Virus record (IMG/VR): IMGVR_UViG_3300042259_000159
Origin: a virus
Length of the DNA stretch: 64,000 nucleotides
Direction: 5' to 3' (one strand)
In this document: piece by piece, positions 33,954 through 46,401 of the stretch
How the letters are laid out: each line of letters begins with the position of its first letter
Numbering within the stretch: position 1 is the stretch's first letter
Program-made: the position numbers and the translations under genes
Notes under the pieces: generated by a model
Told to the model about the DNA's origin: nothing
Database searches by the model: none
Seen by the model: only the letters and a program-made list of their open reading frames with translations

Positions 33954-34037
33954 TGGTAGGAGAAGAGAGATTCGAACTCTCAAGGAATAATCCGTCGAGG
34001 CTTAAACTCGATGTGTTTACCATTTCACCATTCTCCC
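33954..34037 (-). tRNA. tRNA-Leu (anticodon UAA), type II, CCA encoded
   Basis: Manual fold: acceptor GGGAGAA/TTCTCCT, anticodon loop TTTAAGC, long variable arm, T-loop TTCGAAT. Confidence 0.65.
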
Positions 34038-34045
34038 GTATTTTT

Positions 34046-34067
34046 TATCTACCATTCCGCCATTCCC
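34046..34067 (-). other. orphan tRNA 5' fragment (Leu-like acceptor + D-arm)
   Basis: GCGGGAATGGCGGAATGGTAGA with no matching 3' half. Confidence 0.4.
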
Positions 34068-34076
34068 GCATTTATT

Positions 34077-34153
34077 TGGTACCCACTGTGAGATTCGAAC
34101 CCACACTAATCAGTTTCTAAGACTGATGCCTCTGCCAAGTTGGGCTATACCAG
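34077..34153 (-). tRNA. tRNA-like gene (class I, anticodon UAG) with mismatched acceptor stem; probably chimeric or disrupted
   Basis: D-arm, anticodon arm TCAGT-CTTAGAA-ACTGA and T-arm fold, but 5' ACTGGTA does not pair with 3' AGTGGGT. Confidence 0.4.
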
Positions 34154-34184
34154 TATTATGCTTATTATTTTATTTTGAAAGGCC

Positions 34185-34235
34185 ATATGTATACACATAT
34201 ATATATATACATATATATATGTATAGAGCAACCAA
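34185..34235. repeat. TA-rich microsatellite
   Basis: atatgtatacacatatatatatatacatatatatatgtatag. Confidence 0.8.
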
Positions 34236-34412
34236 AATGGTTAAATAAAAAGGTGTTTTGTGGAGACACCAAACTCCTCCAGTTTTAGTGATCTGGAAAC
34301 AATAAGCGGCGCAGGTGCTCTTTAAAACACGTGCTACCAAGCGTATAAATTGTCTAGGGGATTTCACCAAACACATTATGTTATTGGAGGGATCTTTCCC
34401 TAGACTCAGTAA

Positions 34413-34485
34413 AGCTCCTGACAGGACTTGAACCCGCAACCGGCTGATTACAAATCAGCTGCTCTGCCAGTTGAGCTACAGGAGC
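34413..34485 (-). tRNA. tRNA-Thr (anticodon UGU), CCA not encoded
   Basis: Manual fold: acceptor GCTCCTG/CAGGAGC, D-arm GCTC..GAGC, anticodon loop TTTGTAA. Confidence 0.7.
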
Positions 34486-34489
34486 AGAA

Positions 34490-34561
34490 CAGAGGGAGAA
34501 GGATTCGAACCTTCGAATGACGGGACCAAAACCCGTTGCCTTACCGCTTGGCTACCCCTCT
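34490..34561 (-). tRNA. tRNA-Gln (anticodon UUG), CCA not encoded
   Basis: Manual fold: acceptor AGAGGGG/TCCCTCT, anticodon stem ACGGG/CCCGT, loop TTTTGGT. Confidence 0.65.
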
Positions 34562-34569
34562 AAATTTTT

Positions 34570-34646
34570 TGGCTCCGGCGGCAGGATTTGAACCTACATT
34601 CGCAATGGTTAACAGCCATTTGCCTTACCAATTCGGCGACACCGGA
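34570..34646 (-). tRNA. tRNA-Asn (anticodon GUU), CCA encoded
   Basis: Manual fold: acceptor TCCGGTG/CGCCGGA, anticodon stem AATGG/CCATT, loop CTGTTAA. Confidence 0.65.
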
Positions 34647-34691
34647 ATGAACTTTTTATTTGTTATCAGCATTGTTTTGCTTTATTTTAAA

Positions 34692-34770
34692 TGGTCTCGG
34701 TGATTAGATTTGAACTAATGATTATTCCTGCTCCCAAAGCAGGTGCCATACCAAGCTAGGCGACACCGAG
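34692..34770 (-). tRNA. tRNA-Pro (anticodon UGG), CCA encoded
   Basis: Manual fold: acceptor CTCGGTG/CACCGAG perfect, anticodon stem CCTGC/GCAGG, loop TTTGGGA. Confidence 0.6.
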
Positions 34771-35251
34771 ATCAGGTGTGGTACCAAACTCCACTATGGG
34801 CAGAGGTTATAAGAAGGTCCGTACATGATATAGACAGATATTCTTCCATAACAGCGGTACGGACGCTGTCTCATTTTTATATCTTTCAGTGTGCTATTAC
34901 GCCAAAGGGAAATTAAGCCTTACCAGTTACGGGGTGCCCTTTTACTATCCACAAAGAATTTCAAATCGCGTGCATTCTAAGTATCGGAAAATTCTACAAC
35001 CACTTAAAGTACACCTCGTTTAAGAGATAGCGACCTGTGCTTCGTCCCACTCTTTAAAGGATGGCTGCCTCAAAGCCCACCTCCTGAAAAATGCATGAAG
35101 GATTATCCCTCCTTCGCTAAATACAACCTATCAATTTTAAGGGTTCTTGTCAAGAACATTTTAAGGTTTTTGAAATTTTTGTTGAACGCTGATTTGCTAC
35201 GCGGGTACAGCGTTCGAAACCTCGATAGCATCCTTGCCGTTGGCAAAGCTG

Positions 35252-35393
35252 TCAGGAGCCGCAGGAGGAGAATTGAACTCCTCTGGCATCAACACGCAGT
35301 CACCACAACTACATCTACCGTTACGGGTATGGCTCCCCATCCTAGTCACCTGTTGATACCTTATAGGTTCAGCCCTACCAAGGGCACTGCGGC
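35252..35393 (-). ncRNA. tRNA-like structured RNA (~142 nt) with 7-bp acceptor-like stem and T-arm; possible intron-containing or disrupted tRNA
   Basis: GCCGCAG ... GAGGAGTTCAATTCTCCTC CTGCGGC; body too long for a standard tRNA. Confidence 0.3.
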
Positions 35394-35399
35394 TTAAGT

Positions 35400-35620
35400 G
35401 GGTTGGTTGGTGCAGATTGTGAACGTACCCCCGCCTATAGAGGCGGAAGCTTCCTGCTTCAGCGAGAACAGCACCAGTAACTCCGAAGAGTTGTGGCGAA
35501 TTACACTCTCTCCACAGGCGTAAATTCCCGTGCGACCCACGGTACTTTATGAGTTACGCTAGGCAGATATTCGCCCAGCTTCTTCTCTAATATTTATTGC
35601 AGCGTTCTTGTCACGGTTAT
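35400..35620 (-). ncRNA. putative TnpB guide (omega) RNA region overlapping the tnpB 3' end and right end
   Basis: Position relative to tnpB; subterminal hairpin CCGCC-tataga-GGCGG at 35431-35446; no direct RNA evidence. Confidence 0.35.
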
Positions 35621-36795
35621 GATGACTGCCACACTTAAGGCAATCCCATTCCCGCACAGACAAGTCTTTGGTATCCTTGTTCTGGTAGCCACAGACATGG
35701 CATAGCTGACTGCTTGGATACCATTTGTCTATCTTGATAAGTTGCTTACCCTGCCATGCAAGTTTGTATTTCAGCATACTTGTGAACATGCTCCAGCCGT
35801 TGTCGGATATGGATTTACCAAAGTTGAACTTGCCACCCTTCTTTCGCTTCGCCATGTCCTTTACGCTAATGTCCTCTATGCCAATCACATCATAGCGGTC
35901 TGCAAGATAACGAGCTTTCTTATGCAGGAAGTCGCGGCGTTGATTAGCAATTTTCTCATGGAGTACAGCCAAACGTAGTCTTTGTTTATTCCTATTACGG
36001 CTCCCTTTTTGTCTCTTGGAGAGTTTTCTTTGTGCCTTGATCAATCTCTTTTCGGCTTCCCGTAAGAAATTTGGATAATCGGCGTTGTCCTCATCGGAAG
36101 CAACATACATCCCGTGCATAGCAAAATCCAATCCAAGAAAATTCTTCGGTATGATGGGAAGTATTTGGTTTTCATACTCCACCAAAATACTAATATAGTA
36201 TTTTCCTGACGGTGTTTTACTTATGGTTACAGTCTTTATGGTGCTATTCTCCATCAATGGACGATGCAGACACAGCTTTACCCAACCTATTTTCGGCAGC
36301 TTGACTTTGTTTCCCTCGATTCTTACAGAGCCATGTTGGTTGTTCGTAGAATATGAAGCATGACCCGCTTTCTTCGACTTGAAGCGTGGCTTGCAAAAAT
36401 GCTTCCTATTGCTCCAAAAGTTGTTATACGCCTTGTTCAGGTTTATTTGGGCATTGGCGAGAGCAAGGCTGTCAACCTCTTTCAGCCAAGGAAACTCTTT
36501 CTTGTACTGTGCAGGTGTGTTGTTCAGCCTCTCTCCTGTTTCCTTATAGTGATCAAGACGATCTCCAAGCATCTTGTTATAGATGAATCTGGCACTGCCG
36601 AAAGTCTTGGCAAACATAATCTTCTGTTCAATTGTCGGGTAGAGTCTATATCGGTATGCCTTATTCACTATAATCACCTGCCTTGATTTTCTATGTATTT
36701 ACGAATTGTCTCAAACGGAGCAATTATCTGGCTCAACTACTTACGTAAATTCGCTAGACACACCTTCATCCCCCACCTTAGAGGTGGAGGGCTTC
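35425..36795 (-). mobile_element. IS200/IS605-family element, TnpB-only (IS1341-like)
   Basis: tnpB ORF flanked by similar subterminal hairpins at 36773-36787 and 35431-35446; no tnpA seen. Confidence 0.7.
35559..36677 (-). CDS. tnpB: TnpB (IS200/IS605 OrfB, RuvC-like RNA-guided nuclease)
   Basis: N-terminal YRYRLYPT; C-terminal zinc finger CHVCG...CLKCG; 372 aa. Confidence 0.85.
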   Translation of the reverse strand: MIIVNKAYRYRLYPTIEQKIMFAKTFGSARFIYNKMLGDRLDHYKETGERLNNTPAQYKKEFPWLKEVDSLALANAQINLNKAYNNFWSNRKHFCKPRFKSKKAGHASYSTNNQHGSVRIEGNKVKLPKIGWVKLCLHRPLMENSTIKTVTISKTPSGKYYISILVEYENQILPIIPKNFLGLDFAMHGMYVASDEDNADYPNFLREAEKRLIKAQRKLSKRQKGSRNRNKQRLRLAVLHEKIANQRRDFLHKKARYLADRYDVIGIEDISVKDMAKRKKGGKFNFGKSISDNGWSMFTSMLKYKLAWQGKQLIKIDKWYPSSQLCHVCGYQNKDTKDLSVREWDCLKCGSHHNRDKNAAINIREEAGRISA

Positions 36796-36799
36796 TGGC

Positions 36800-36843
36800 G
36801 GGTTAGGTTAAATCCCTTGTGTCTACTAATTCCACCAATCGGG
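36800..36843 (-). other. partial tRNA-Leu-like 5' fragment next to the IS left end
   Basis: GCCCGATTGGTGGAATTAGTAGACAC duplicates the 5' end of tRNA-Leu at 36940 but lacks a foldable remainder. Confidence 0.4.
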
Positions 36844-36853
36844 CTAAAATCTT

Positions 36854-36940
36854 TGGTGCCCAATGCAGGACTCGAACCTGCACGCCATTTCAGGCAGGAG
36901 GGCTTAAACCTCGTGTGTCTACCAATTCCACCAATCGGGC
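36854..36940 (-). tRNA. tRNA-Leu (anticodon UAA), type II, CCA encoded
   Basis: Manual fold: acceptor GCCCGAT/ATTGGGC, anticodon loop TTTAAGC, long variable arm. Confidence 0.6.
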
Positions 36941-36949
36941 TAAAATCTT

Positions 36950-37033
36950 TGGTGCCTCAGACAGGATTCGAACCTGCACGGATCTCTCCACTTGGTCCTA
37001 AGCCAAGCGTGTCTGCCATTCCACCACTGAGGC
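36950..37033 (-). tRNA. tRNA-Leu (anticodon UAG), type II, CCA encoded
   Basis: Manual fold: acceptor GCCTCAG/CTGAGGC perfect, anticodon stem CTTGG/CCAAG, loop CTTAGGA. Confidence 0.65.
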
Positions 37034-41922: not shown

Positions 41923-42199
41923 GGTGCCGCAGGTTCGGGAAAGTCATACATAATGAATATGATACCTTTGAGGTATGTCGATTGCCCCAACTTTAGGGGG
42001 ATTGTCTTCCGAAGGGAAACGACACAGCTTACAGGTGAAGGGGGGATGTGGGATACAGCAACGGAGATATACTCTGAGCTGCCTAAAAATATCAGGCCCA
42101 AAATATTGAAACATAACCTGAGAATGATTTTTCCGAATGGGGCAAAAATTAAGTTTTCACACATGGAAAATGATAATGATTTCAGGAAACATCAAGGGT
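41923..42199 (+). CDS. terL: terminase large subunit, exon 2 (Walker A)
   Basis: GAAGSGKSY ... FSHMENDNDFRKHQG. Confidence 0.65.
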
Positions 42200-42453
42200 T
42201 AATTAGTAGCCCCTTGTGTTGGTGACAGCGCAAGCAAACTAACCTAATTCGGTGGAAGCCCAAACATGTAGGATGTGGGTGATACCGAGCAAGCCACGGC
42301 GTGTGTAACGACTAGTTCTTAGGAACGTAGGCCCAAGCGGGTCGAAACGGTTAGCATCTTATTAAGATGAAGATATAGTCTACTCTGCATGGAAACATGC
42401 AGCGGACACTTTATGTGTCGGGCAGATGTTAGCGCCATCTGTTGAATATTATG
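42200..42453 (+). other. group I intron 2 in terL
   Basis: R gtgtgtaacgactagttcttagg at 42301; S gaagatatagtctactctgcatggaaacatgcag at 42369. Confidence 0.6.
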
Positions 42454-42562
42454 TACAATATACCCTGATATGCTTTGATGAGGCAACACATTTCACTTTC
42501 CAACAAGTTGAATACTTAATGTCACGTATGAGAAGTAAAAGTAAGTATGCTTCTCGTATGGT
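42454..42562 (+). CDS. terL: terminase large subunit, exon 3 (Walker B)
   Basis: QYTLICFDEATHFTFQQVEYLMSRMRSKSKYASRM. Confidence 0.6.
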
Positions 42563-42846
42563 TCTGTCGTGGATTACGCGACATGTATGGCGAAAGCTGT
42601 ACTGGCAACTGTGTGAACTCAGGGAAACCTTAGCTGCTGCAATTGGGCAGAGGAAGAAGGCAATCCTGAGCGAAGCCTTCCCACCGGGAAGGAACGTGCA
42701 ACGACCATCGAAAGCGTAACACCTGTTACAGTGAGTAGAGTACACCACACATGTGTGGTGGAAGCGCACAGCCCCTAACATGTAACGATGAGGGTGAAGA
42801 TATGGTCTGAACCTACAGAAATGTAGAAAAAGGTAAACAAATACAG
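42563..42846 (+). other. group I intron 3 in terL
   Basis: Shared 48-bp motif caatcctgagcgaagccttcccaccgggaaggaacgtgcaacgaccatc; S-like gaagatatggtctgaacc at 42796. Confidence 0.55.
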
Positions 42847-43162
42847 GATAATCGGTAACCCAGATCCTGATAGTTGGCTTTTGCCTATGGTAGAGTGGTA
42901 CTTAGATGAACAAGGATACCCCGACCAGTCTAAAGATGGGGTTGTAAGATGGTTCATTAGAAAGAATGGTGAGTTTATCTGGAGGGATACAGAAGAAGAA
43001 ATCTATAGAGATTTTGGAACAGGCCCGTCTATACGCCCTGTATCCTTTACATTCATCTCTGCAAATATCTATGATAACCCTATTATGATAGAGACCAATC
43101 CAGACTATCTTGCAATGCTTGAAGGCCTCAACGAGGTTGATAAGGCAAGATTACTACGCGGT
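42847..43162 (+). CDS. terL: terminase large subunit, exon 4
   Basis: IIGNPDPDSWLLPMVEWYLDEQGYPD...; the NP motif is only in frame once intron 3 is removed. Confidence 0.6.
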
Positions 43163-43444
43163 TAACAGTGGCCGCATATAGTAGTGATATTATATGAAAA
43201 ATTGTGTGAATTCAGGGGACACCTAAACAGGCAACGCTTTGTGCTGTAGGCAATCCTGAGCGAAGCCTTCCCACCGGGAAGGAACGTGCAACGACCATCC
43301 TGAGTAGGAGTAGGGCCAAGCGGTTCCGAAGCGCACAACATCTCATTGAGATGATGATATGGTCTGATCTATATGGAAACATATAGCTGACACGGTGTAT
43401 ATTACGTGTCGGGCACGTCTTAGCGAGACGTGCTGAACAAAATG
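43163..43444 (+). other. group I intron 4 in terL
   Basis: Same 48-bp motif at 43250; S-like gatgatatggtctgatctatatggaaacatatag at 43371; 3' end ...ctgaacaaaatg. Confidence 0.55.
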
Positions 43445-44167
43445 AACTGGTATGCTAGACCACAGGATAGTGGATACTTTAAAAGAGATTGGCTGCAACG
43501 TTGTGTTGAGGCACCTACTGATACAAAGTGGGTACGTGCTTGGGATAAAGCAGCTACAGAGCCGAGTGACACAAACCCCTCTCCTGACTATACAGCTTGT
43601 ATAAAGATGGGGAAAGATAGAGCAGGAAACTACTACATTGCTGGCGATTTTGTGGAAGAAAACTATGATGAAGACAGCAAGACATATGGCAGGTTCAGGA
43701 AAAGAGCAGGTGCAAGAGATAATATCATCTTGAAACAGGCACTTGCTGATGGCCATGATTGTGAGGTTGTTCTTCCTCAAGACCCCGCTGCTGCGGGTAA
43801 GACGGAATACATTGAATCAGCAAAGAAATTAATAGAGCAAGGTATCCGTTGCAGAAAGGATGTGGTTGCATCTAACAAATCTAAGCTAATAAAGTTTTCA
43901 CCGTTTTCTGCATCATGCGAGAATGGGCTTGTTTACATCTTGGATGCAACATTTACCCAAAAAACATTGAATGCATTTTATACAGAGCTTGAATCTTTCA
44001 ACGGAGAAGCAAGCACAAGAACACGAAAGGATGATTGGGTTGACTGCACAGCAATGGCATTCAACTACCTATCTAAAAAAAGTGTACTTCCCAATTTTAC
44101 ACTAGATGAGTGGGGAGGTACATCGGTAAAAACACCCCTCTCAATTGTGAGGGCCAACTTTCATTAA
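43445..44167 (+). CDS. terL: terminase large subunit, exon 5 (nuclease domain)
   Basis: WVRAWDKAAT...DYTACIKMGKDRAGNYYIAGDFV; the five exons total 1500 nt (500 codons). Confidence 0.65.
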   Translation, partial: NWYARPQDSGYFKRDWLQRCVEAPTDTKWVRAWDKAATEPSDTNPSPDYTACIKMGKDRAGNYYIAGDFVEENYDEDSKTYGRFRKRAGARDNIILKQALADGHDCEVVLPQDPAAAGKTEYIESAKKLIEQGIRCRKDVVASNKSKLIKFSPFSASCENGLVYILDATFTQKTLNAFYTELESFNGEASTRTRKDDWVDCTAMAFNYLSKKSVLPNFTLDEWGGTSVKTPLSIVRANFH

Positions 44168-44178
44168 GGAGGGCACTG

Positions 44179-44885
44179 GTGGTAAAAGAGGGCAGCAAGT
44201 CTGCTACAAAAACAACCACTTCTAAGAAATTCAACCTATCTGAAAAAGGGTATATAGGACTTAATCAGGTAAATGGCCGCATTTATGAGGAAAGTCGTGA
44301 TGCTTTAAGGTTCCCTAATGCGACAAAGACCTTTAAAAAGATGTCCTATGACCCTGTAATATCCGCTGCAAATTCCACAATAGATCTTATGATAGGTCGT
44401 GTGCAGTGGTTCTTCGATGTTCCTGATACAGCCAGTGATAAGGCAAAAGAAGCAGCAGAATTTTTAAATTACTGTATGAACAGCATGGATATGGGAACAT
44501 GGGAAGATTTCATTACTGAGTGTGGTAGCTATAGACGTTACGGCTTTCACATAGCGGAAAAAGTCTACAACAAGGTTAAAGAAGGGAAGTGGAAGGGAAA
44601 GTATAAGTGGAAAAAACTACCAACAAGAGCACAAGACACCATTGAAGAGTGGGTCTTTAGTAAGGATAACAGGGAGCTTTTAGGCTTAAAACAGTCAACA
44701 AGAAATGTGACACACCCACTGGCATTAAAGAGCCTTACAGGCTATATAGAAATACCAAGGTCAAAATTCATACATTTTGCCTACGATGGGTATAGAGATA
44801 ACCCAGAGGGAAGAAGCCCGTTAGTTGGTGCCTACATCCCTTGGACATATAAAACACTCATAGAGGAATATGAGGCTGTCGGCGT
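44179..44885 (+). CDS. portal protein, exon 1
   Basis: GTG start 6 nt after AAGGAGG; portal-sized product after splicing. Confidence 0.55.
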
Positions 44886-45826
44886 TAATTATAGCGCCTT
44901 TATGTATTGATACATAAAGCAAACTCCCTTAATTCAGGGGAAGCCCTAACGTTGAGACGAGGGTAATCCTGAGCGAAGCCTTCCCAACGGGAAGGAACGT
45001 GCAACGACTAATAAGTCAAATAAACAACACATTAGTGTATGGAGAGTATTTTATGAAAACTTCAAAAGAAATTAGGAACCTTGTCATTGCTATGCTGTTT
45101 GGAGACGGCACATTGAATGCTAAAGGTTATTTGAGCATGCGTCACTGCATAGCGCAAAAAGACTATATAGATTGGAAACGAAAACTTCTAGTAAGTGGTA
45201 TATCTATGACTGACTGTTATTATGTTAGTAATAACGGGTATGGTGCATATGAAGTTAGAAGTAGAGTTTACAAATTTATGAAGCAATATCGTAAGGTAAT
45301 TTATGGTAGTGGTAGAAAAAACATTACAGACCGTAGAATCCTGAATAAGCTCACGCCGCTTGGTTTATCCATATGGTATATGGATGATGGCGGGTTATCT
45401 CAGAAGAAAAACAAGGATGGTGAAGTAGTAGCAAACGAGCTGATACTTAACACATATCTTAGTAGAGAAGACAACCAGAAGATTATTGATTACTTCAATG
45501 AAGTTTGGGGTATAAGATTTACTCAGGTAAAGAATAGAGGTCTTTATCGTCTCCGTTGCGGTACAGCGGAGGCTAGGAAATTTATAGAAATCGTAAAGCC
45601 ATATGTCTCCCAAGTACCGAGTATGGCACACAAAATGAAGTTAAAAGTAAAATAGTCTGACTATCGAACACACGTAATTTTTACGGAAGTTAGTAGAGTA
45701 GAACCAAGTGGTTCGAAACGGGGAGGTTCTTAGAAATAAGAACATGATATAGTCTGGTCTGCATGGAGACATGCAGGAGTTCATAAGAGAACCGGAGAAG
45801 ATTAACGACCTTTTCTGAACACAACG
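44886..45826 (+). other. group I intron in portal gene carrying a LAGLIDADG homing endonuclease ORF
   Basis: 48-bp shared motif at 44960; S element gatatagtctggtctgcatggagacatgcagg at 45746; 3' end ...ctgaacacaacg. Confidence 0.6.
44999..45655 (+). CDS. LAGLIDADG homing endonuclease (intron-encoded)
   Basis: LVIAMLFGDGTL and LSIWYMDDGG motifs; probable start at ATG 45053. Confidence 0.7.
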   Translation: MQRLISQINNTLVYGEYFMKTSKEIRNLVIAMLFGDGTLNAKGYLSMRHCIAQKDYIDWKRKLLVSGISMTDCYYVSNNGYGAYEVRSRVYKFMKQYRKVIYGSGRKNITDRRILNKLTPLGLSIWYMDDGGLSQKKNKDGEVVANELILNTYLSREDNQKIIDYFNEVWGIRFTQVKNRGLYRLRCGTAEARKFIEIVKPYVSQVPSMAHKMKLKVK

Positions 45827-46070
45827 AGCTAAAGACCTTGGGGGTATTCCTCTTATAGGTGTGGATGTTGATTACCTTGCTAAAGCACAGGAGAACCCTG
45901 CATCAGCAGAAGCCGCTGTTGTAGAGGCACTGAAGCGTGATGCAGCAAATATGCATTCAGGTGATCAATCCTACATGCTCCTTCCTCTTGCTTACACACA
46001 GGATGGGGGGAAACCACTCTTTGATTTTAAACTTGTTGGAGTGGACGGTGGTTTGCAAATAAGCCACGGT
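45827..46070 (+). CDS. portal protein, exon 2
   Basis: In-frame continuation (V)AKDLGGIPLIGVDVDYLAKAQ...ISHG. Confidence 0.5.
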
Positions 46071-46401
46071 AGATGGAAACATCTATAAAAATAAACCTAT
46101 CTAATTGCTGGGAAGTCTTGTTAGGCTTAATGTACAATACAGAGTGGTGACACTCTGCGATACTGTAAAAATCATTAAGATAGAGATAATCAGCAGCCAA
46201 GCTTAAGCCTCCAGACAGATAAAGGAGGAGGCTTTTGAAGGTTCAACGACTAGTTCTTAGGAACGTAGGCCCAAGCGGGTCCAAACGGTAGGGTTCCTCC
46301 AGTGCGGCTGAGGAATAAGATATAGTCTAGTCTGTATGGAGACATACAGGTGCAGGTAAAGCTGCCGGAAAGGTCTAGCGAGCCTTTTTGAATACTAAAC
46401 G
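46071..46401 (+). other. group I intron 2 in portal gene (no ORF)
   Basis: R ggttcaacgactagttcttaggaacg at 46241; S gaataagatatagtctagtctgtatggagacatacagg at 46313. Confidence 0.6.

Follow-up and report, generated by a model that had tools for sequence, protein, structure and literature searches.

Phage tRNA arrays are usually annotated for tRNAs only, and two further stable RNAs encoded in the T4 tRNA cluster have lacked an assigned function since the 1970s. The role of T4 species 1 RNA (rnaC) remains unexplained after 50 years (PMC3014915; PMC12685909). Its T-arm contains CCGGG-UUCGAAU-CCCGG, followed by CGUUUCG, which pairs with CGAUUCG at the 5′ end. A 64,000-nucleotide (nt) stretch of viral DNA, the IMG/VR record IMGVR_UViG_3300042259_000159 (the window hereafter), was found to contain eight tRNA genes by ARAGORN, which lie from 33954 to 37033 and share the minus strand; a further tRNA-like RNA of 136 nt sits among them at 35258..35393 on the minus strand. 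The RNA was delimited by its sequence, its fold and its identity in ten contigs, and it joins tRNA-type ends, D-arm and T-arm to a foreign interior. It is read here, with moderate confidence, as a minus-strand gene for a tRNA-scaffolded stable non-coding RNA (ncRNA) of the phage tRNA array. The RNA is of a known general kind, is new as a family and is confined so far to one phage lineage, in which it is represented by one invariant sequence.

The anatomy of the RNA is given with position p corresponding to window coordinate 35394-p. A first-pass annotation of the window had drawn a 142-nt element at 35252-35393, of which the end at 35393 was retained, whereas the start was found at 35258 and the length to be 136 nt, so that the span was six bases off. 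The acceptor-like stem was found to contain GCCGCAG in its 5′ strand at positions 1-7 (35387..35393, minus), perfectly paired with 35258-35264; the annotated terminal stem, in which GCCGCAG (35258-35264) is fully complementary to CTGCGGC (35387-35393), was thus confirmed at its perfect 7 bp. The stem is followed by U8 and a D-arm GCCCU-UGGU-AGGGC, neither of which the first-pass annotation had mentioned, at positions 8-22 in the fold (D-arm 9-22; 35372..35386, minus). The D-arm can also be drawn with a 4-bp stem and the loop UUGGUA, the GG of the D-loop is placed like G18/G19, and the UUGGUA motif recurs in two tRNAs of the phage, tRNA-Asn and tRNA-Pro, again in the D-loop.

Where the anticodon arm is expected to start, an 11-nt linker UGAACCUAUAA was found at positions 23-33 (35361..35371, minus), unpaired in both the minimum free energy (MFE) and the centroid structure. 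It is followed by an inserted domain of 76 nt at positions 34-109 (35285..35360, minus), in which a 9-bp closing helix (34-42 / 101-109) and three hairpins make up a four-way junction. The inserted domain replaces the anticodon and variable arms, and A110 alone separates it from the T-stem. The T-arm at positions 111-129 (35265..35283, minus) contained GAGGAG-UUCAAUU-CUCCUC with a 6-bp stem, a 7-nt loop and the equivalent of G53-C61, that is, a canonical 5-bp T-stem (AGGAG-UUCAAUU-CUCCU) with a U-U-C-A-A loop and one extra G-C pair. A T-arm-like hairpin had been annotated as GAGGA-GTTCAAT-TCTCC and is indeed present at 35265-35283, but the quoted letters are those of the minus-strand reading. 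The 3′ strand of the acceptor-like stem, CUGCGGC, occupies positions 130-136 (35258..35264, minus) and is followed by U-CC-U, so that CCA is not encoded; the same was found for tRNA-Thr and tRNA-Gln, and the Leu, Asn and Pro genes encode CCA.

The tRNA arrangement was found on the minus strand only, where the T-hairpin abuts the 3′ acceptor strand; in the plus-strand reading the neighbour of the T-hairpin is the 5′ arm of the terminal stem, unlike in a tRNA. Several helices, including helices of the 76-nt domain, contained G-U pairs that are valid on the minus strand only. The minus-strand fold had an energy of -58.1 kcal/mol and a z score of -3.9, taken against 200 dinucleotide shuffles, and its centroid was identical to the MFE structure; it consisted of 44 bp with no mismatches inside the helices. 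The plus-strand fold reached -43.9 kcal/mol (z -2.8). The inserted domain by itself was found to adopt the same fold at -27.1 kcal/mol (z -2.5), and the fold of the tRNA-like RNA and of its 76-nt domain recurred inside units of ~410-420 nt in three contigs that are variant or free of the insertion element discussed below.

The chance level of such an arrangement was estimated with a descriptor consisting of a T-arm with a TTYRANN loop and G53-C61, placed 0-1 nt before a perfect 7-bp terminal stem, with the arms 100-220 nt apart. Without U8 and the D-arm, the descriptor gave 0.04 matches per shuffled window (both strands), and with U8 and a GG-containing D hairpin added it gave none in 300 shuffled windows. 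The tRNA-like RNA was the sole match of the full descriptor in the real window. On 1.6 Mb of gathered DNA, the descriptor without U8 and the D-arm recovered every copy of the RNA, and its other matches were ordinary tRNAs with a fortuitous upstream complement of the acceptor strand.

The suggestion of a tRNA-like or tRNA-derived RNA in the first-pass annotation found support in the acceptor stem, the T-arm, the D-arm, the strand, the place in the tRNA array and the weak tRNA matches of a covariance model (R1) built from the RNA. Run unfiltered on other phage loci, R1 gave matches of 8-17 bits, essentially to ordinary tRNAs only, and the ends, the D-arm and the T-arm are therefore of tRNA grade. 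Set against the tRNA family (RF00005), the acceptor stem was found to contain 7 Watson-Crick pairs and the T-arm to lie directly 5′ of the acceptor 3′ strand; U8 and the D-arm were both present, yet with a 1-nt gap between the stems and a loop of 4-6 nt. The anticodon arm (5-bp stem, 7-nt loop, U33, purine 37) was found neither in the fold nor by ARAGORN or Rfam, and no hairpin of the MFE or centroid structure contained a 7-nt loop of anticodon type. Without an anticodon loop the RNA cannot decode.

The RNA is neither a decoding tRNA nor an intron-containing tRNA. The latter had been proposed in the first-pass annotation and was abandoned, as the extra sequence is not flanked by an anticodon stem-loop on either side; at 60 nt it is also too short for a group I intron (>200 nt), and the Rfam Intron_gpI model matched only at 42-46 kb. 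A tRNA nested in the 76-nt insert was likewise rejected, because the insert has a cloverleaf outline but contains no T-loop, no 7-nt anticodon loop and no match to a tRNA model. The covariance, tRNA-intron and tmRNA searches proposed in that annotation were carried out, and neither ARAGORN nor the Rfam 15 models recognised the RNA. ARAGORN made no call on the element at default thresholds in its standard, intron (0-3000 nt) and tmRNA modes; at thresholds of 60-80% it returned only mismatch-rich models that ignore the terminal stem, and its tmRNA mode was negative even at 80%. Rfam 15 gave nothing over the element at gathering thresholds and no match over it at E<=10, whether 3.4 kb were searched or, under relaxed filters, 426 nt, a result that covers the tRNA, tRNA-Sec and tmRNA families, YrlA and group I introns; YrlA (RF02553) showed no overlap with 35258-35393 at E<=10.

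The molecule could also be pictured as one that is aminoacylated and enters the ribosome, namely an unusual tRNA, a tRNA-Sec-like tRNA, an allo-tRNA or a mini-tmRNA. The order of its elements (acceptor, D, long helix beside the T-arm, T-arm) matches that of the tRNA-like domain of tmRNA, and the 13-bp acceptor/T helix and short D-loop recall tRNA-Sec. This is nevertheless very improbable, since no 7-nt anticodon loop occurs anywhere in the molecule, the tmRNA mode of ARAGORN and the Rfam models of tmRNA, tRNA and tRNA-Sec were negative, and 136 nt are too small for a tag ORF (open reading frame) and pseudoknots. A tag frame, a resume codon and pseudoknots of tmRNA were not found in the element, position 3:70 was occupied by C-G instead of the alanine pair G3:U70 of tmRNA, and the discriminator was found to be U73. 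In E. coli, the anticodon-independent identity sets are G3:U70 for Ala, G73 for Ser and A73 for Leu. The RNA contains C3-G70 and U73 and lacks the Ala, Ser and Leu sets, and from these nucleotides it is therefore probably not aminoacylated.

The RNA lies beside an insertion sequence (IS) of the IS200/IS605 family, found at 35419..36807 on the minus strand with the left end CCTAAC... and the right end ...GTACGTTCAC, inserted after TTTAA. The IS contains a TnpB ORF of 372 aa (36677-35559, minus) with the Pfam domains OrfB_IS605, Cas12f1-like_TNB and HTH_OrfB_IS605. The ends of the IS were fixed by comparison with a related contig, L002, and with 66 bacterial loci encoding TnpB relatives: the left end CCTAAY... 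was found directly after TTTAA in ~45 bacterial copies, and the right end ...GTACGTTCAC was found in L002 and in ~36 bacterial copies, with unrelated flanks each time. The adjacency to the IS right end noted in the first-pass annotation holds, as only 25 nt separate the 5′ end of the RNA from the IS, which stops at 35419. The intervening 25-nt spacer AAUCUGCACCAACCAACCCACUUAA occupies 35394..35418 (minus), its boundary being taken from L002 and the ~36 bacterial junctions, and its first 16-20 nt (35418-35399) are the presumptive guide of the omega-RNA, which does not reach the RNA.

The RNA was retained in every arrangement seen, with the IS abutting it, ~370 nt upstream of it or absent. The identical 136 nt were found in the window's arrangement in L026, L028 and L029, with the IS ~370 nt upstream and inside tRNA-Leu(UAA) in L002, and with no IS nearby in L027, L030 and L031. 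R1 gave no match in 50 bacterial IS loci. The earlier idea that the sequence is part of the TnpB guide region is accordingly refuted, since the guide lies at 35418-35399, the RNA starts at 35393 and is unchanged in the IS-free variants, and the 50 bacterial loci contain no R1 match. The wider claim, that the RNA belongs to the IS as TnpB omega-RNA, guide or right end, could draw on the 25-nt distance to the right end, on the strand shared with tnpB and on a nearby weak match to RAGATH-18, an IS605-associated motif. It is refuted by the right end, which stops at 35419 with differing flanks in the ~36 bacterial copies, by the absence of R1 matches from bacterial IS loci, and by L027, L030 and L031, which carry the RNA without the IS, together with the ~370-nt distance in L002. 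The RAGATH-18 match, at 35451-35518 (minus) just downstream of the tnpB stop, scored 27 bits against a gathering threshold of 44.9 and is probably part of the omega-RNA scaffold.

The left end of the IS was found to cut a second tRNA-Leu(UAA) gene in its anticodon loop, after GAUUUAA, and the 5′ half of this gene remains at 36808..36844 (minus), as determined against the intact tRNA-Leu(UAA) copy (36854-36940, minus) and L002. In L002, a tRNA-Leu(UAA) gene is likewise split by the IS (L002 4240-2786). The target-adjacent motif (TAM) of the IS is TTTAA, and the phage copies occupy the UUUAA anticodon loop of tRNA-Leu(UAA) genes. The window variant appears to have lost ~700 nt, comprising the tRNA-Leu 3′ half, a 71-codon ORF and a structured leader of ~200 nt; its junction CTTAA/AATCTGC is a one-mismatch TAM, and the loss would fit a deletion between two IS copies.

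The ten contigs with the RNA were found to be 100% identical in the RNA and in an 88-nt trailer at 35170..35257 (minus), which was always found with the RNA and contains two hairpins, ending GAACGCUG...CAGCGUUC AACAAAAAUUU. The window sequence is identical to IMG/VR UViG 3300042267_000152, and L002 is the sole informative relative, with 90-99% identity elsewhere. The window and L002 differed at 0/136 nt in the RNA and at 0/88 nt in the trailer, at 2/25 nt in the 25-nt spacer, at 12/73 nt in tRNA-Thr and at 5/77 nt in tRNA-Asn, and the module downstream of the trailer was replaced by unrelated sequence. The 0/224 differences fit purifying selection on an RNA-plus-trailer module without proving it.

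Exact 22-mer and 26-mer scans of IMG/VR recovered only L001, which is the window itself, and L002. A gapped pattern of the D-loop and T-loop gave 9 chance matches in IMG/VR and 60 in metagenome contigs, none of which scored with R1, and a linker/T-loop pattern gave nothing in the metagenome contigs, a collection apparently without even the known contigs. The 3′ 21-mer of the RNA was absent from 185,579 species genomes; a known host tRNA was therefore not the source of the 3′ end, and nothing supports an attP-like origin. A blastn search of INPHARED (50,697 phage records) gave nothing for the RNA, the leader or the trailer. A neighbouring protein of 324 aa had relatives at <=56% identity, and R1 gave no match on the contigs of these relatives or on 79 related viral loci (1.24 Mb). 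A spurious 100-aa plus-strand ORF over the RNA, used as a protein query, retrieved the further contigs L026-L031, and the spurious overlapping ORFs as protein queries, including a second ORF-based search, gave only 100%-identical copies or nothing. A protein-coding reading was rejected, as only such spurious ORFs without homologues were found over the RNA.

The nearest distinct relatives, L024 and L025, in which the neighbouring protein is 54-56% identical, were found to share a different structured element of ~85-115 nt in their tRNA arrays (L025 455-570, plus; L024 1880-1962, plus). The element contained a long hairpin GGACAUGGAU...UUCAAGUCC with an A-A mismatch and is not in Rfam. It was rejected as a homologue of the tRNA-like RNA and represents a separate long-hairpin family.

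A dead tRNA gene, in which the anticodon region was replaced by insertion or rearrangement and the functionless remainder seems conserved through recent kinship, is an unlikely explanation of the locus. It would agree with the absence of the anticodon arm, with the restriction to one narrow phage lineage in which all copies are identical, and with the lack of a homologue in the 79 related viral loci, the 60 metagenome candidates, the 50 bacterial IS loci and the INPHARED phages; the region is also rich in selfish elements that break tRNA genes, as seen from the IS in tRNA-Leu anticodon loops. Decay, however, is not expected to spare perfect helices of 7, 5, 9, 8, 4 and 6 bp together with the GG and UUCAAUU loops of the elbow, and the insert folds well alone. 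An origin of the insert from the IS ends or from a sequence repeated in the window was rejected, as the insert resembled neither the IS ends nor any other part of the window, and the 0/224 differences in RNA and trailer stand against 3-16% in the flanking tRNAs and spacers.

In the IS-free variants, the RNA was found to be preceded by a conserved region of ~300 nt that holds the ~200-nt structured leader (minus strand; L027 4300-4610, L002 2442-2760, also in L030 and L031), which is absent from the window. The 3′ strand of the long helix of the leader is the 25-nt spacer that was retained in the window. One base pair of the leader showed a compensatory change between L002 and L027 (AUAACGGC/GCCGUUAC to AUAACGGU/ACCGUUAU), and the leader had no match to an Rfam family. 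A tmRNA tag in this leader was considered and rejected, as the candidate frame ending in MSAA and a stop codon becomes MSTA and a stop codon in L002. A promoter upstream of the leader, CTGACA-19 nt-TGTTATAAA, was picked by hand and is only a suggestion. The trailer fold had a z score of only -1.8, and the trailer was not picked up by the terminator scan.

The locus has features that would suit a cis-acting punctuation signal for RNase P and RNase Z: the RNA of the IS-free variants is flanked by the ~200-nt leader and by the invariant trailer, the leader shows the compensatory change, and the RNA of the window follows the IS right end by 25 nt in the same orientation. Such a signal would set the 3′ end of an upstream RNA and the 5′ end of a downstream RNA, in the manner of mascRNA in MALAT1. 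Upstream of it would lie the structured leader in the IS-free variants or, in the window, the omega-RNA with its 25-nt guide tail. We consider this explanation improbable, since a plain tRNA or a minimal acceptor/T minihelix would suffice for it, which leaves the invariant and well-folded 76-nt domain unexplained, and since the leader was lost in the window variant whereas the RNA was kept.

A tRNA-scaffolded stable ncRNA remains the preferred reading, for which the anatomy of the RNA, its strand, its independence from the IS and its invariance among the variants are established. The ends would form, with the D-arm and T-arm, an acceptor/T coaxial helix and a tRNA elbow, and the 76-nt domain would emerge 1 nt before the T-stem, which is the topology of a long variable arm or of tmRNA helix 2. 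The RNA would be co-transcribed with its neighbours, in the IS-free variants on the same strand behind the ~200-nt structured leader and in the window variant by read-through out of tnpB and the omega-RNA. The 5′ end would be made by RNase P at G35393 and the 3′ end by RNase Z behind the discriminator U35257; CCA would then be added, as for the CCA-less neighbouring tRNAs, to give a stable product of ~136-139 nt. The tRNA part would most likely supply processing and stability, and the inserted domain or the tRNA-like shape may bind or titrate a host or phage factor, as ligand or as decoy.

In a bolder and only tentative form of this proposal, the RNA would be a natural tRNA scaffold in which RNase P, RNase Z, the CCA-adding enzyme and the modification enzymes of the host are hijacked and the 76-nt cargo sequesters or reprograms a host factor. 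The RNA would then be one of a broader set of mostly unannotated translation-machinery mimics in phage tRNA arrays, together with a look-alike of the GTPase-associated centre (GAC) described below. Examples of possible targets of such a scaffold are tRNA-directed defence nucleases and parts of the translation apparatus.

A number of observations weigh against the preferred reading. The geometry of the tRNA part is off-standard, as the acceptor and D stems are separated by 1 nt instead of two, the D-loop contains 4-6 nt and the 6-bp T-stem extends the acceptor/T helix to 13 bp. Diverged homologues were found by none of the routes described above, and base-pair covariation thus has no informative sequences. 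Purifying selection is unproven, since the window and L002 also share identical tRNA-Pro and tRNA-Gln genes and phage genomes are mosaic, and the identity of all copies could instead reflect recent common ancestry or mosaic exchange. Promoter-like and terminator-like sites were not found above chance. The presumed native upstream region is deleted in the window variant, yet this variant was found in at least 4 samples, and the normal expression of the unit would therefore be dispensable or replaced by read-through. The RNA is known here from its sequence and predicted fold, from which its transcription, processing, stability and trans-acting role are inferred.

A second, widespread and unannotated RNA was found at ~35085-34887 on the minus strand, ~175 nt downstream of the tRNA-like RNA and just before tRNA-Pro. 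It contained a core match at 35083-35036 and a second block at 34903-34887, which reproduce helices 43 and 44 of 23S rRNA (GAC, the L11/thiostrepton site) as GGCUUUGAGGCAGCCAUCCUUUAAAGAGUG and GGCGUAAUAGCACAC, in the layout GGCUUUGAGGCAGCCAUCCUUUAAAGAGUG ... GGCACCCCG..GGUAAGGCU.AA..UCCCUUUGGCGUAAUAGCACAC. The first block matched positions 1097-1144 of the Rfam LSU (large-subunit rRNA) model with E = 1e-4. Unannotated relatives with blocks that are >90% identical and a variable insert were found in the tRNA arrays of the Pseudomonas phages pf16 and UNO-G1W1 and beside tRNA-Met in Aeromonas phage 4_4572, followed by further matches in Astolliot, Milchi, XacN1, XaC1, Paenibacillus Pd_22F and Cronobacter GAP32. 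The GAC-like RNA was absent from L002, and a literature search for a GAC-like phage RNA found no description. It may be a decoy of rRNA or a ligand of L11/L10, and it may merit more attention than the tRNA-like RNA. The presence of a GAC-like RNA in phage tRNA arrays raises the prior that the tRNA-like element is also a processed structured RNA.

The closest copies of TnpB were found in Phascolarctobacterium (94-96% amino-acid identity), followed by copies in Mitsuokella, Megasphaera and Selenomonas (81-90%). The IS copies at 94-96% in Phascolarctobacterium genomes are therefore a pointer to the host, and the phage host probably belongs to the gut Negativicutes. In the same tRNA array, a 69-nt tRNA called as tRNA-Leu(UAG) at 34077-34145 (minus) was found without a long variable arm and with a reduced D-arm (Rfam tRNA, 37.8 bits), and its counterpart in L002 has the anticodon UAA. 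The genome is densely populated by selfish elements; elsewhere in the window, five group I introns were found within ~4 kb at 42190-46349 on the plus strand (Rfam Intron_gpI, 51-96 bits), with an intein-containing NrdD and HNH endonuclease genes near them.

Among the known systems, T4 rnaC is the closest, and species 2 RNA (rnaD) is grouped with it. Both rnaC and the tRNA-like RNA are encoded among phage tRNA genes, on the strand of the tRNAs, and have ~140 nt (rnaC has 139 nt and lies at the cluster end). Each has a canonical T-arm directly against the 3′ strand of its acceptor-like terminal stem, and each has a large interior without tRNA character. In rnaC, the terminal stem contains two U-U mismatches, the D-arm is missing and the interior consists of two long hairpins, whereas the RNA described here contains a perfect stem, a D-arm with GG and a four-way junction and is more tRNA-like. 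No homology between the two was found by blastn of the 50,697 phage records or by R1 in the T4 tRNA region, and the tRNA-like RNA is best called analogous, not homologous, to rnaC. It shows the features of an rnaC-type stable RNA, which is a kind and not a curated family, namely the tRNA cluster, the tRNA strand, a length of ~120-140 nt, the T-arm with a terminal stem and the non-tRNA interior; shared stability and processing are predicted for it.

The likeness to tmRNA was found in the succession of 5′ acceptor strand, D element, long helix beside the T-arm in the absence of an anticodon arm, T-arm and 3′ acceptor strand, whereas the phage RNA contains no G3:U70, tag frame or pseudoknots, has 136 nt against at least 250 nt and has a real D-stem. 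The 7-bp acceptor, U8, the GG of the short D-loop, the UUCAAUU T-loop with the G53-C61 equivalent and the position in a tRNA array are shared with canonical tRNAs; canonical and intron-containing tRNAs differ from the phage RNA in its lack of an anticodon stem-loop, its 136 nt, its 1-nt gap between the acceptor and D stems and its 6-bp T-stem. As in mascRNA, in YrlA, a bacterial Y RNA with a tRNA-like domain, and in the engineered tRNA scaffold, a module of tRNA shape would attract RNase P, RNase Z and the CCA-adding enzyme and would stabilise the non-tRNA RNA attached to it. YrlA differs in that its free ends lie in the Ro-binding stem and not in an acceptor stem, and the Rfam YrlA model was negative here; mascRNA (MALAT1) is eukaryotic and carries no cargo. 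In the engineered tRNA scaffold, the cargo domain likewise stands in place of the anticodon arm. To our knowledge, no natural phage tRNA scaffold with a cargo domain is known, and a literature search for one found none.

With its tRNA ends and foreign interior, the tRNA-like RNA provides another case of the kind seen in T4, unrelated to the first and cleaner. Together with the GAC-like RNA, it suggests that tRNA arrays double as depots of processed ncRNAs that imitate the translation apparatus. If the tRNA part does serve as a processing and stability scaffold, the RNA would be the natural counterpart of the engineered tRNA scaffold.

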